Shown here piece by piece: positions 3,204 through 6,748 of a stretch of 49,282 nucleotides of DNA. Position 1 is the first letter of the stretch; each line of letters starts with the position of its first letter. The stretch lies in assembly GCA_034721855.1 (NCBI GenBank), contig JAYENB010000187.1:1-49282 (forward strand). The letters are read 5' to 3'. Below the pieces are notes generated by a model. That model saw nothing but the letters and a program-made list of their open reading frames with translations, was not told the origin of the DNA and searched no databases. The translations under genes were made by a program, and so were the position numbers. This DNA is from Bacteroidota bacterium (lineage in GTDB: Bacteria > Bacteroidota > Bacteroidia > Bacteroidales > ML635J-15).

Positions 3204-3325
3204 AACAAGTCTATATTTTTATTTAGTACAAATTTAAAAATTATTGTTATTTTCCTTTGCAGATATTGTTTATTTATTTTCCAACAAAATAACATTCAAA
3301 ATGTTCTTATTCATTATATTTTCAT

Positions 3326-3387
3326 AATTTTGGCTGCACTCGGCATAGCACAAGCAAGCTTGGCTCTGCCCTCGTTTGCACAAAATT
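3326..3387. repeat. Short Bacteroidota interspersed hairpin element (GGCTGCACTCGGCA...TGCCCTCGTTTGCAC)
   Basis: GC-rich nested palindrome bounded by aattttg/caaaatt inside an AT-rich divergent promoter region. Confidence 0.5.
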
Positions 3388-3466
3388 TGCATAAAATTTG
3401 TTTCTTGAAAGAAAAGAATTAATAGAAGGCCCCTATACAAAATTGGAGAAAATTTTATTTGAATGT

Positions 3467-3496
3467 TTTGCTGGAAAGAATAAAACCCTATATTTG
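3467..3496 (+). promoter_or_regulatory. Bacteroidota sigmaA promoter of tRNA-Phe
   Basis: TTTG (3467-3470) and TATATTTG (3489-3496). Confidence 0.7.
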
Positions 3497-3516
3497 CACT
3501 CTCAAAATAAAACAGA

Positions 3517-3589
<73 letters not shown>

Positions 3590-3592
3590 CAA

Positions 3593-3790
3593 GGCATGAT
3601 AGAACGAAGGCACGAAGGGGCGAGTTGGCGATGGGGTGATGGCATGATAAGGAGAAATAATCAGAACACACACACAATAAAGGGATATCCCTTGAAATTT
3701 CGTGCAATCGTGCCATCTTTCAGTCGTGCTATCACACAATAACCGCTCACCAACTCGCCCCATCGCCAACTCGCCCCTTCGTGCTATCAC
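3593..3790. repeat. REP-like palindrome built of ~8-mer tandem units
   Basis: Perfect 27-bp inverted repeat 3610-3636 / 3758-3784; central palindrome aagggatatccctt; GCACGAAG/GCATGATA and TCGTGC units. Confidence 0.75.
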
Positions 3791-3819
3791 TCTATCTCAC
3801 ACTCACATTTGCTATGGAT

Positions 3820-5817
3820 TTACCTCTTTATTTTTTTATACAGCGTAATATTTGAGTTTTCAATTTTTATACAACCATCTAATGATAATTGTCTGATGAT
3901 TAAACTAATATCAGATTTGTCTATATATACTTTTGATCCAAAGTAATTTAATAATTTTTTCTCTGATACCATTTTTTCTTTTCTGATAAATTGTTTAATA
4001 TAAATTCCAAAATTCTTAGGCAAATAATAATAATCCCGATATTCAACTGAATCTTTTTTATTCTGTAAGCCTATAAAATTTTGAGGGAAAAATACAAACA
4101 CATTTGATTTATCTAGCTTTAGGTTAGTAATAATATTTTTTCCATTGGTATTTCGGAATTTATTTACATACTCCGTTACTTCCAGTAAATGTTTTGGTTT
4201 ATTATGTTTTTTGAGGAATTGTTCAACGATATTTCTAATCGTTCCCCCTTTAAAAGACTCTATTTTTCCCTCCCATATTTTTAATCCATAAGTACTTGAT
4301 CTTCCAAGTGGTACAAATTTACTACTTCTTTGCATTGATGTTCTGAGTTTCTCTACACTGGTAATGTATCCCGGATATAGTTCTTTGACTTTTTTATAAA
4401 TCGTATCAACTTTGGATGATTCTCCTAATTCTTTTAATGCTTCATAAGCATATTCATAAATTAATTTTTTTGTATTTCTTTCAAAGTTGATTCTGTCATT
4501 AAATAAGACATTGGTTATTTCAAGCTCATTAAAAAGAATATGCTCCGCTACTGGAATAACCCTTTTAAAATCAATGGATGAACCTGGTTTTTTAAAGTTT
4601 ATTAAATGTGTTTCAAAATCTAATGAATAATTTTCTTCTATTTTTCCGGATAATCTTCTGGAAACATCAATTATTAACGAAGAAAAATCAATCATTTCAG
4701 TTAATTCTTTTTTTACTAAATAAACAGAATGCCATTTGTATTTTGTTTCCCTGTCTTTTATGTTACAAGCACAACTCATTATGTTTCCAACCAAGCAATG
4801 CGTATTATCCAAAAGAATAGATAATATCTTTGTAATAAAAATTTGATTGAAAGAAGTTGATTCTTGTCGGTTAATTTCCTTTACTAAGTCTTCGTTTATG
4901 ATAATAATATCAGAATCAATATCAATATCATAAAGGTTTAATGTTTCAAACTCCAATCCTTTAATAAATGAAAATGTATTGTTTAAATTTTCAATCAAAT
5001 GTTTTCTAATTTCCCTGATTCTTTCTGTTGTAAGATTAAGTGATGAACCAATTTTTTTAATTTTTGATATTTCTGTATGCATCCAAAAATTTAACCCTTT
5101 TTGAAAAATTAATTTTTCTTTTTTGTTAAATATTAAATCATTCGAAATTAACGTCTGGATGGTCTTAAAAATTGGCAATCCAATTTCAATGTCATAATCT
5201 TCCAAAATGTCATGATTTATTTCGGGTTTTAAGTTGTTGAATCTCTTATTTAAATAAGTCTTAAATAATTCTACAGATACTTCCTTATAATCTTCATAAG
5301 ATTGAATTATTTCAATTTGTTCCCGTATGTTTATAAAAAGAGAATTTAGTTCTTTTTCGCTTACTCTGCCAACATTTCTAATTGTTTTTAAATTAAAATA
5401 CGGGTTTATTATAATTTCGGTCAGATTATCTAAGGAATAATCTGATTCTGCATAATATTTTATACAATTAAAACTTCTGATAGATAAATTATTTACAAGA
5501 GAATCTATAACATTGTCCAATATTTTTTTTTGTTTAACTGTTAAATTATCAATTTGTTGTTGGATATTATTCTCAGGATTTGATTCTATTATTTTTGTTG
5601 TAAGGTTTTTGTATTTGTGGCAAATATTAACTAATTCAATATTTGATACCTGACCACAATTTCTAAGATGTAAAAAGCTTCCGTTATCCAAGTAAAAATT
5701 AATAATCGCTGATATATCAGTTAAATTATTTTTCTTACAAATATTATAAGATTGAACACTTAGGTTTTCAAGTTTTGATATTTGATTTAAACTGATGTTT
5801 ACTTTGTTTATATACAT
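3820..5817 (-). CDS. AT-rich multidomain DNA-binding protein: two RNAP alphaCTD-like HhH, sigma70 region-4 HTH, two C-terminal winged helices (HARE-HTH-like)
   Basis: LSVQSYNIC...LRNCGQVSNIEL and LSIRSFNCI...IRNVGRVSEKEL (alphaCTD-like); IGSSLNLTTERIREI (sigma4); YEALKELGE...IYKKV...STYGLKIW (wHTH). Confidence 0.7.
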   Translation of the reverse strand: MYINKVNISLNQISKLENLSVQSYNICKKNNLTDISAIINFYLDNGSFLHLRNCGQVSNIELVNICHKYKNLTTKIIESNPENNIQQQIDNLTVKQKKILDNVIDSLVNNLSIRSFNCIKYYAESDYSLDNLTEIIINPYFNLKTIRNVGRVSEKELNSLFINIREQIEIIQSYEDYKEVSVELFKTYLNKRFNNLKPEINHDILEDYDIEIGLPIFKTIQTLISNDLIFNKKEKLIFQKGLNFWMHTEISKIKKIGSSLNLTTERIREIRKHLIENLNNTFSFIKGLEFETLNLYDIDIDSDIIIINEDLVKEINRQESTSFNQIFITKILSILLDNTHCLVGNIMSCACNIKDRETKYKWHSVYLVKKELTEMIDFSSLIIDVSRRLSGKIEENYSLDFETHLINFKKPGSSIDFKRVIPVAEHILFNELEITNVLFNDRINFERNTKKLIYEYAYEALKELGESSKVDTIYKKVKELYPGYITSVEKLRTSMQRSSKFVPLGRSSTYGLKIWEGKIESFKGGTIRNIVEQFLKKHNKPKHLLEVTEYVNKFRNTNGKNIITNLKLDKSNVFVFFPQNFIGLQNKKDSVEYRDYYYLPKNFGIYIKQFIRKEKMVSEKKLLNYFGSKVYIDKSDISLIIRQLSLDGCIKIENSNITLYKKIKR

Positions 5818-5950
5818 TAAAAAAATATTCTTATGTTTCGATTACTTTATTAATGATTGTGTTATTTCTCTTTTCATGCTAATATACAATGTTGTTTTTA
5901 CATAATTTTTGTAAAAATACAATATTGTTCCGTAATTTACGAATTATTGA

Positions 5951-6748
5951 TCAAAATATCGCATCCCACACCCCCAGTAAATGCCCTGAAAATGCCAGGA
6001 CAATAATAATCAGTAATATGCGCACAAATTTTACCCCTTTTGTTATGGCCAGATGTGAACCGACAAGTCCTCCGGCAAAATGGCCAATGGCAGCAACAAG
6101 GCCAAGTATCCACTCTATCTGTCCGTCAAGGACATATATTGCAATGGCAAAAGGGCTGTACATCAATACAACAAACACTTTGATGGCATTGGCTTTGACC
6201 AAATCATAACCTGCCTGCAACACCAATGCGGACAACAAAAATATGCCTACACCTATATGAATAAAACCGCCATAAATACCCACTAGGAAAAACAACAATA
6301 TCTGCAGCCATCCGATTTTTTTATGTGTTTTTTCTTTTTGCTCTTCAACCCATTTTTTGGGATCAAAAATCATAAAAACCATCAGTACTAAAAGCGATAC
6401 GCCAATAATCTTTTCAAACAAATGATGTGGTATGTTTACGGCTATCATCGCACCTATGATAGAGCCAATGATAATAGGAATGCTCAGCTTTAATGCTTTT
6501 TTGATATCCAGCTTCCCGTTTCGGTAAAACCTGATGGCTGCTGTGGACGTTTGTAACATTACGCCTAACCGCATGGTCCCATTAGCCATAGGAGCAGGAA
6601 TACCCAAAGCTACCAGCAACGAAAACGTAATGACAGAACCCGATCCTGCCAGGGTATTTATTATTCCCACCGCGAAACCTGCCAATATCAATATCAGAAA
6701 AATCTGCCATGAATACAGGTCAAAGGATGTTAGAAAATCATGAATCAT
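5951..6748 (-). CDS. TauE/SafE (TSUP) family membrane transporter
   Basis: GFAVGIINTLAGSGS...GIYGGFIHIGVG; about 8 TM segments. Confidence 0.9.
   Translation of the reverse strand: MIHDFLTSFDLYSWQIFLILILAGFAVGIINTLAGSGSVITFSLLVALGIPAPMANGTMRLGVMLQTSTAAIRFYRNGKLDIKKALKLSIPIIIGSIIGAMIAVNIPHHLFEKIIGVSLLVLMVFMIFDPKKWVEEQKEKTHKKIGWLQILLFFLVGIYGGFIHIGVGIFLLSALVLQAGYDLVKANAIKVFVVLMYSPFAIAIYVLDGQIEWILGLVAAIGHFAGGLVGSHLAITKGVKFVRILLIIIVLAFSGHLLGVWDAIF

Follow-up and report, generated by a model that had tools for sequence, protein, structure and literature searches.

The stretch of DNA analysed here (the window) comprises 49,282 nucleotides (nt) of contig JAYENB010000187.1, read on the forward strand, from a Bacteroidota bacterium. 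Between a tRNA-Phe gene and a TauE/SafE-family gene, it carries an intact open reading frame (ORF) at 3820..5817 on the minus strand, which begins with ATG and encodes a protein of 665 amino acids (aa), P0001. We refer to this gene as A. Relatives of A typically lead a cassette that continues with Sp-DndD, DndD and DndE-HerA. On balance, we regard the window gene as the intact, horizontally acquired and orphaned DNA-reader head of this Dnd-derived, putative anti-invader cassette.

The A locus and the gap it fills

The features between the two flanking genes are as follows.

3517..3590, plus strand: tRNA-Phe (GAA), called by ARAGORN; its 3' end is one edge of the variable gap
3591..3819: palindromic repeat resembling a miniature inverted-repeat transposable element (MITE), between the tRNA and the stop codon of A; arms at 3598-3639 and 3755-3796
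3820..5817, minus strand: gene A, encoding the 665-aa non-catalytic protein P0001 with multiple helix-turn-helix (HTH) units; a copy, orphaned here, of the gene that opens the A/Sp-DndD/DndD/DndE-HerA cassette
5818..5950, minus strand: AT-rich intergenic region upstream of A, up to the TauE stop codon, without counterpart in empty-site genomes
5951..6748, minus strand: TauE/SafE-family gene (Pfam PF01925, E = 2.5e-45), which forms the conserved border of the insert opposite the tRNA

A preliminary description of this DNA had drawn attention to an AT-rich gene beside tRNA-Phe, and both traits are borne out. The G+C content of A is 0.250, compared to 0.394 for the remainder of the window; it stays between 0.23 and 0.28 in 500-nt segments over the gene, with a steep fall at both gene ends. 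The tRNA is convergent with A and lies 229 nt away. The palindrome between them is ~200 nt long as a whole, has arms of 42 nt each that are 88% complementary, and is predicted to fold as RNA with an energy of −106 kcal/mol (z −9). This repeat is multi-copy, with 74 matches over many contigs of the same genome.

TauE is present in all 13 genomes of the genus, and the same tRNA-Phe borders the gap in G004, G005, G007, G010 and G002. The contents of the gap differ from genome to genome.

G004: 185 nt from tRNA-Phe to TauE; empty, with a terminator-like hairpin after the tRNA
G007: ~320 nt from tRNA-Phe to TauE; empty
G005: 414 nt from tRNA-Phe to TauE; empty
G010 (L098 2172-5993): ~3.8 kb from tRNA-Phe to TauE; a peptidase S15 and an ATP-grasp protein
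G002 (L101 832-6025): ~5.2 kb from tRNA-Phe to TauE; a protein sorted by the type IX secretion system (T9SS), a TonB-dependent receptor and a 23S rRNA intervening sequence (IVS) protein
G011 (L108 1-177): the contig ends; the first ~58 codons of A lie beside TauE

What lies between the two flanking genes varies within the genus, the combination of A and the MITE-like repeat being one of several alternatives. The case for insertion is this comparison of empty and filled sites: as regards the marks of a tRNA-targeted island, no integrase was seen among the neighbours, and no tRNA 3'-end repeat was among the repeats listed for 3300-6300. The idea that the gap is a defence hotspot was rejected, since its other cargo consists of metabolic or surface genes.

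Searches of the 12 other genomes of the genus recovered no full-length A. Any match to A at all was seen in 8 of 41 genomes searched, this one included; the others are partial, and mostly cover the part that resembles the C-terminal domain of the RNA polymerase (RNAP) alpha subunit (alphaCTD). In the region considered here, the window and G011 share ~82% nucleotide identity. The assembled part of the G011 orthologue is interrupted by an in-frame TGA near codon 46 and lacks an ATG corresponding to that of the window copy. This copy is probably a pseudogene, with an assembly error as another possible cause.

Contigs carrying A occur in four runs, all of DNA and all from one brine-metagenome study. 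In two brine-metagenome runs, contigs span the end of the MITE-like repeat, A and TauE with 0-1 differences and at the depth of the flanks, so that an assembly chimera can be ruled out at this junction. One caveat is that these two runs may be the window's own source, and so may not provide independent support. Among the contigs listed, which cannot reveal rare variants, none joins tRNA-Phe to TauE across A.

The neighbouring genes have housekeeping-type products. Those beyond the tRNA encode a T9SS-sorted protein, a protein with thioredoxin/glutaredoxin domains, GroES and OsmC; those on the opposite side of A encode TauE, YitT, a dehydrogenase of the isocitrate/isopropylmalate type and a two-component pair, and further along the window lie ORFs of the size of tuf, rpoB and rpoC. 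At ~3276-3563 of the window, contig depth is 10-60 times that of the flanks in the four brine-metagenome runs, which suggests a second dispersed repeat upstream of tRNA-Phe, besides cross-mapping of the tRNA itself.

The A family and the domains of P0001

Homologs of P0001 reach E = 2e-175, with 73 word-indexed matches down to 3e-66, and because of this the ORF cannot be put down to chance. The family comprises 1171 clusters at 50% identity with E ≤ 1e-3, 421 of them with E ≤ 1e-30, and is found mostly in Bacteroidota. At 53 of 63 homolog loci, the G+C content of A is at least 3 points below that of its flanks (mean difference, −7 points), and AT-richness is therefore a property of the family. 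No match to A was obtained by tblastn against 50,697 phage and 72,556 plasmid records, collections that are poor in Bacteroidota, and a pattern scan of IMG/VR confirmed no relative. Look-alike clusters in a protein atlas (alphaCTD plus sigma region 4, some with HARE-HTH) occur in Pseudomonadota, Bacillota and Minisyncoccota, and 12-88% of the members of such clusters carry HARE-HTH; we treat these as leads only.

We derived the domain architecture of P0001 from an alignment of 27 family members and from an AlphaFold model (mean predicted local distance difference test score, pLDDT, of 80). All domains below are on the minus strand.

5608..5796: alphaCTD-like domain 1 (residues ~8-70); fold match to RNAP alphaCTD, with the family-conserved Arg 22 replaced by Gln
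5338..5544: alphaCTD-like domain 2 (residues ~92-160); Pfam PF03118
4948..5142: sigma-70 region 4.2-like HTH (residues 226-290, 'LTTERIREIR'); family profile and PF04545
4477..4947: central family-specific domain, alpha/beta (modelled as residues 286-455)
4246..4476: winged helix 3 (residues 448-524), RpoE-delta/HARE-HTH-like by fold matches
4033..4245: winged helix 4 (residues 525-595), Zalpha/MarR-like by fold matches
3823..4032: short helical C-terminal tail (residues 596-665), modelled with low confidence (pLDDT 27-58)

Evidence for the alphaCTDs comes from both fold and sequence. Residues 4-73 of the model match alphaCTD structures 7vpd_S (Z 8.0, root-mean-square deviation (rmsd) 1.9 over 57 aligned residues) and 8y5l_A2 (Z 7.5); these values are middling on the scale of the tool, yet they span a complete helix-hairpin-helix domain. 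The second domain (residues 95-158) scores 23.1 bits against RNA_pol_A_CTD (PF03118) by hmmscan, just under the cutoff of 23.8 and thus borderline, while a six-frame search of the genome gives A 24.6 bits, above the cutoff. PF03118 is matched by 22 of the 27 members (best E = 2.8e-10). When a profile of residues 5-165 was compared with PDB sequences, all 11 matches at E ≤ 0.01 were to RNAP alpha (best, 1.7e-6). The genome has a separate, bona fide rpoA (81 bits to PF03118), and the second alphaCTD of P0001 is 29% identical to that of the host's own RpoA.

The profile of residues 226-290 aligns with region 4.2 of SigA (residues 324-358) at E = 1.1e-12 and has 75 PDB sequences at E ≤ 1; the family motif LTRERvRQI lies opposite VTRERIRQI of the SigA structure. 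Sigma70_r4 (PF04545) is matched by 20 of the 27 members. P0001 by itself has no Pfam Sigma70_r4 match and a weak RpoS-type one (0.016). N-terminal to this HTH, nothing was seen apart from the alphaCTDs and a helical linker.

The central domain, folded alone (residues 286-455, ~170 residues), is modelled with a pLDDT of 92. Its structural matches are weak (best Z 3.6) and consist of tandem winged-helix-like entries from SelB, TFIIIC, kleisins and cullins; neither a Foldseek match in the PDB at E ≤ 0.001 nor a PDB sequence match by profile was obtained. Judging from the model, it probably consists of two divergent winged-helix-like units. No nuclease is among the structural matches listed, and we set aside a nuclease in this domain, although a weak match does not exclude a fold. 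Similarly, the whole model returned tandem winged-helix and cullin-type entries in Foldseek, none at E ≤ 0.001.

Winged helix 3 (448-524) contains the family's most conserved motif, GRSSTYGLKxWE, and matches 2od5 (Z 8.7), forkhead domains (Z ~8) and RpoE delta (9a6y_A, Z 7.6; 8x6g_E, Z 7.5). Winged helix 4 (525-595) matches Zalpha of ZBP1 (9j8g_A, Z 8.7, rmsd 1.5), 3bz6 (Z 8.7) and winged helices of the MarR type. A profile of residues 453-596 had no meaningful match among PDB sequences. HARE-HTH (PF05066) was found in 1 of the 27 members, at 0.0055, and the match to the delta fold is rivalled by those to forkhead domains and 2od5. Here 'HARE-like' denotes a resemblance of the winged helix rather than family membership. 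At the C-terminus, 19 of the 27 members carry one to five HA repeats (PF03457). P0001 has its short tail instead, and this tail aligns with P0003-P0005, the nearest relatives sharing the short ending.

The domain content set out in the preliminary description therefore largely stands. The two alphaCTD-like motifs and the sigma region-4 HTH (LTTERIREI) are recovered by family profiles, and comparison domain by domain finds the predicted alphaCTD and winged-helix folds in the model. Catalytic domains and sigma region 2 had been reported as missing, and neither an enzyme nor Sigma70_r2 is among the eight families detected at E ≤ 0.01 over the 27 members. Describing two winged helices as resembling HARE-HTH or RNAP delta is fair as a statement of likeness: both winged helices are seen in the model, the first with a delta-like fold and the second with its best matches to Zalpha and MarR-type domains. 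As judged from sequence and model, P0001 would be a non-enzymatic, multivalent protein of the DNA-binding type, with two alphaCTD-like domains, a sigma4.2 HTH and four winged helices.

The presence of region 4.2 homology and of a delta-like winged helix raises the question of whether A encodes an accessory RNAP subunit or an alternative initiation factor that docks on the core enzyme via these domains. We consider this highly improbable. Sigma region 2 was found in none of the 27 members, and the gene is AT-rich, accessory and patchy within the genus, as the lack of a full-length copy in the other genomes indicates. A predicted complex of residues 205-292 with the flap of the host's own RpoB (RpoB 790-906) scored 0.00, a value obtained without controls that is evidence neither way.

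What the domains have retained bears on what they might do. The family-conserved positions of the alphaCTDs (LSVRSxN ... NCGxKS) are, we assume, the DNA-binding '265 determinant' of E. coli alpha, and the invariant E-R-x-R-Q of the HTH presumably has its counterpart in the residues of sigma region 4.2 that contact the −35 element. Based on this pattern of motifs, reading of promoter-like DNA fits better than mimicry of a protein surface. Such mimicry is at the heart of an alternative in which A acts as a decoy or guard, its copies of alphaCTD and sigma4 imitating the RNAP surfaces that phage proteins hit, so that their capture triggers defence. The co-occurrence of two alphaCTD-like domains and a sigma4-like one in a single protein would suit a decoy, as would the family's link to defence-type genes (see below); moreover, a sigma-70-like protein is a named component of the anti-phage system MZA, and the NCBIfam MzaA model gave a weak match (0.0015). 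However, the window copy has neither effector nor partner to trigger, its second alphaCTD shares just the 29% identity given above with the host's, and the motifs that the family conserves are presumably those for DNA contact. We find a decoy improbable.

P0001 keeps 45 of the 47 alignment columns with a family conservation of 80% or more; it deviates at R22Q and Q269E, and the median number of deviations in cassette-borne copies is also two.

The cassette that A usually leads

With an alignment of 12 closer sequences, we retrieved 74 genomic loci, and we grouped into families every ORF lying up to 8 kb from A. A locus counted as assessable if its sequence extended for 4 kb or more beyond the downstream end of A (n = 59). 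At 31 of these, A is the first of three genes on one strand, followed by B and C, and B or C lies within 8 kb of A at 34. Gene B (~700 aa) encodes DndD, with 261.7 bits to NCBIfam TIGR03185 (cutoff, 245.85) and a match to the PADLOC models DndD/PbeC at ~1e-90. Gene C (~525 aa) encodes a DndE domain at the N-terminus and, at the C-terminus, an ATPase of the HerA/FtsK type that matches the C-terminal end of DndH.

A and B are separated by 155-234 nt in 32 loci, mostly 155-191 nt, and a conserved ORF of 59-82 codons occupies all 32 of the spacers examined. It matches Pfam PF20306 (38 and 28.5 bits) and is also similar to the final ~50 residues of DndC. As PF20306 is described as 'Sp-DndD, small protein found in certain Dnd DNA modification systems', the small protein has already been catalogued. 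Overlaps of 4 nt join each of A, the small ORF and DndD to the gene that follows it in L014, which like L059 is a cassette-bearing locus of a cultured Flavobacterium strain; between the genes for DndD and DndE-HerA, the overlap is usually 8-17 nt. The cassette genes are usually co-transcribed and probably co-translated. No DndA, DndC, methylase or nuclease family recurs among the ORFs within 8 kb of A, and by its gene content the cassette is a Dnd-derived module that lacks the sulfur-transfer genes and a nuclease.

The preliminary description had envisaged a single-gene defence system. As regards the single gene, this finds no support: the usual state of the family is a four-gene operon, in which respect the window copy is the odd one out. 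As regards defence, the association holds for the family, through DndD and DndE-HerA and in a few cases through other genes, and does not extend to the window copy, which sits among housekeeping genes. The suggested PADLOC check of P0001 likewise came back empty (0 families at E ≤ 10; PADLOC-DB 2.0.0).

After the cassette genes, the next commonest neighbours of A are type I restriction-modification (R-M) specificity subunits (8 loci) and integrases (6 loci). Directly upstream of A, type I hsdR and a gene for a YgjP-like metallopeptidase occur at 5 loci (L051, L052, L058, L060 and L062), all in metagenome-assembled genomes of high-GC Flavobacteriales. Just downstream of the cassette, a protein with AlbA_2/Schlafen and HATPase_c_4 domains is encoded at 4 loci (L001 15909-17237, L014 15820-17640, L003 and L009) and may be an accessory component. 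At a single locus (L035 12046-13101), A is followed by a gene for a DUF3644 protein that matches the PADLOC candidate PDC-S19 (E = 4e-133). At two distant loci, L038 and L070, an ORF of ~423 aa lies between A and DndD, and the A-B gap is ~1.3 kb. A or the cassette was also seen on contigs binned to Cyanobacteriota, Pseudomonadota, Thermodesulfobacteriota and Ignavibacteriota (L053, L057, L042, L037 and L030), which could be due to transfer between phyla or to mis-binning.

The module of Sp-DndD, DndD and DndE-HerA is widespread and has been noted computationally. In the main text of Rakesh, Aravind and Krishnan (Nucleic Acids Research 2024; PMC10853773), neighbourhoods that combine a DndD-related ABC ATPase with a DndE-fused HerA/FtsK are described as those of 'clade-3' HerA/FtsK; DndD is characterized there as similar to structural maintenance of chromosomes (SMC) proteins, DndE as a double ribbon-helix-helix DNA binder and HerA/FtsK as a translocase, and HARE-HTH is placed beside a PD-(D/E)xK nuclease in Dnd neighbourhoods. 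The same trio follows A in the loci reported here (31/59), whereas the window copy is without it and A loci show no recurrent DndA, DndC, methylase or nuclease. A partner built from alphaCTD, sigma4 and winged helices is not mentioned in that main text, and may be listed in Krishnan et al. 2020 or in a supplement. We did not find 'Sp-DndD' by name in the literature searched, where a printed description of A may nonetheless exist, nor did that literature contain an experimental test of the Sp-DndD/DndD/DndE-HerA module.

Several known proteins resemble A in part. PglW of type-2 BREX, as it is described in PMC12839542, has an alphaCTD-like helical domain followed by three modules of the winged-HTH (wHTH) type. 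By that description, it shares a 'grammar' of alphaCTD followed by wHTH with the DNA-binding part of A and sets a precedent for it in a defence protein, but PglW also has a NERD nuclease, kinases and an inactive STAND module, while A is non-enzymatic and combines two alphaCTDs with a sigma4 HTH. The DndG/SspB/FokI-type readers of Dnd, Ssp and HerA/FtsK-capture systems, as outlined in the main text of PMC10853773, are like A in being non-catalytic arrays of winged helices that partner HerA/FtsK machines; in contrast, A matches nothing in the PADLOC library, which includes Dnd models, and adds modules derived from RNAP. To the RNAP subunits themselves, A shows homology at the level of profile and fold for alphaCTD and sigma region 4.2, and a likeness at the level of fold for the N-terminal winged helix of delta. 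Unlike these subunits, it lacks the alpha N-terminal domain as well as sigma regions 1-3, and it is accessory, AT-rich and patchy.

Orphan state, history and possible roles of A

A maximum-likelihood tree built from 64 A proteins places the window copy in a well-supported clade of 11 sequences, 8 of which come with the cassette; of the 3 labelled solitary, one has just 228 nt of downstream sequence. Its nearest relatives, from L002 and L001 (46-47% identity), both bear the cassette. Across the tree, the cassette/solitary label changes at least 10-14 times and host taxa are intermixed, so A has often parted from its partners and moves between lineages. These data agree with one point of the preliminary description, namely that A was acquired horizontally: gene phylogeny and host taxonomy disagree, three congeners have nothing at the site, and low G+C and patchiness point the same way.

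The genome of the window (3.2 Mb in 341 contigs, 97.7% complete) has a single copy of A. Sp-DndD, DndD and DndE-HerA are not adjacent to it, the MITE-like repeat and tRNA-Phe filling the space downstream, and none of the three was found elsewhere in the assembly (DndD being searched both as protein and with TIGR03185).

These observations could also mean that A is the decaying, functionless remnant of a lost cassette or island, its frame still open because the loss is recent. Consistent with decay are the missing partner genes, the in-frame stop and absent start codon of the G011 orthologue, the position of the MITE-like repeat, which is where Sp-DndD and DndD would follow, and the lack of any remaining integrase or att repeat. 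On the other hand, a frame of 1995 nt at 25% G+C has stayed open and 45 of the 47 conserved residues have been kept in spite of ~82% identity to G011, which, by inference, is hard to square with long neutral drift. A functionless remnant strikes us as quite unlikely. More generally, a long AT-rich frame that is still open and has retained its conserved residues points to constraint that is recent or continuing, and the broken G011 copy to dispensability; in the window, A may be on its way to loss.

Several findings weigh against an orphaned cassette head. Neither DndD nor DndE-HerA lies within 8 kb of A at 25 of the 59 assessable loci, and A may therefore have a function of its own. One basal clade of the tree, nine sequences from high-GC Flavobacteriales, never occurs with the cassette, and five of its members follow hsdR and the YgjP-like gene. 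Partner genes could be hidden in the unassembled gaps of the draft genome. The cassette contains no recognisable effector nuclease, and the term 'anti-invader' is therefore inferred from relatives and from PADLOC names. The substitutions R22Q and Q269E, at family-conserved residues, fall within the predicted DNA-contact motifs. Finally, the broken orthologue in G011, as far as its assembled sequence goes, argues that the orphan is dispensable.

The partnerless loci lend themselves to another account, in which A alone binds DNA resembling UP elements or −35 elements and competes with RNAP, as an autonomous promoter-occluding regulator or in the manner of a xenogeneic silencer, and its linkage to Dnd genes is regulatory. 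All recognisable domains of A are DNA-binding modules, and the window copy is intact with nearly all conserved columns in place. Regulator genes commonly lead defence operons. But a protein of 600-950 aa with at least seven DNA-binding modules is unusual for an operon regulator, the 4-nt overlaps in L014 suggest stoichiometric co-production with the partners, and the damage to the G011 orthologue speaks against an important regulatory role in the host. An autonomous regulator is unlikely in our estimation.

If A is instead the head of the cassette, its most likely part would be target recognition. The alphaCTDs would read the minor groove of A/T-rich DNA and the sigma4 HTH a −35-like hexamer, with the winged helices adding further DNA contacts. 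A would then hand the selected DNA to a DndD clamp and a HerA/FtsK pump, and Sp-DndD, a free-standing DndC tail, probably docks on DndD. The output of the cassette could be exclusion, pumping, silencing or the recruitment of an unlinked effector. An orphan A has no ATP-driven part, yet it could still bind or occlude DNA as a regulator or occluder. In its boldest form, the proposal is that the family is a kit for upstream-promoter reading that directs DndD as a clamp and HerA/FtsK as a pump to strong promoters of DNA entering the cell, such that invaders are recognised by promoter architecture and not by modification state, with no nuclease involved, and that orphans act as silencers of foreign AT-rich DNA by competing for promoters. 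We offer this version as speculation that is distinctly unlikely to be right in full.

For annotation, the seeming stand-alone 'RNAP mimic' should be labelled as part of a larger system from which it has been orphaned. Island turnover left the orphan behind as a by-product. The A loci represent a subtype of the module whose sole other component is a large protein of promoter-recognition domains, and which has no modification enzyme or nuclease. If it is true that this head reads promoter-like DNA, the family would embody a new principle of discrimination between self and invader, and a use of alphaCTD and sigma4 outside transcription, which makes it a good target for experiment.

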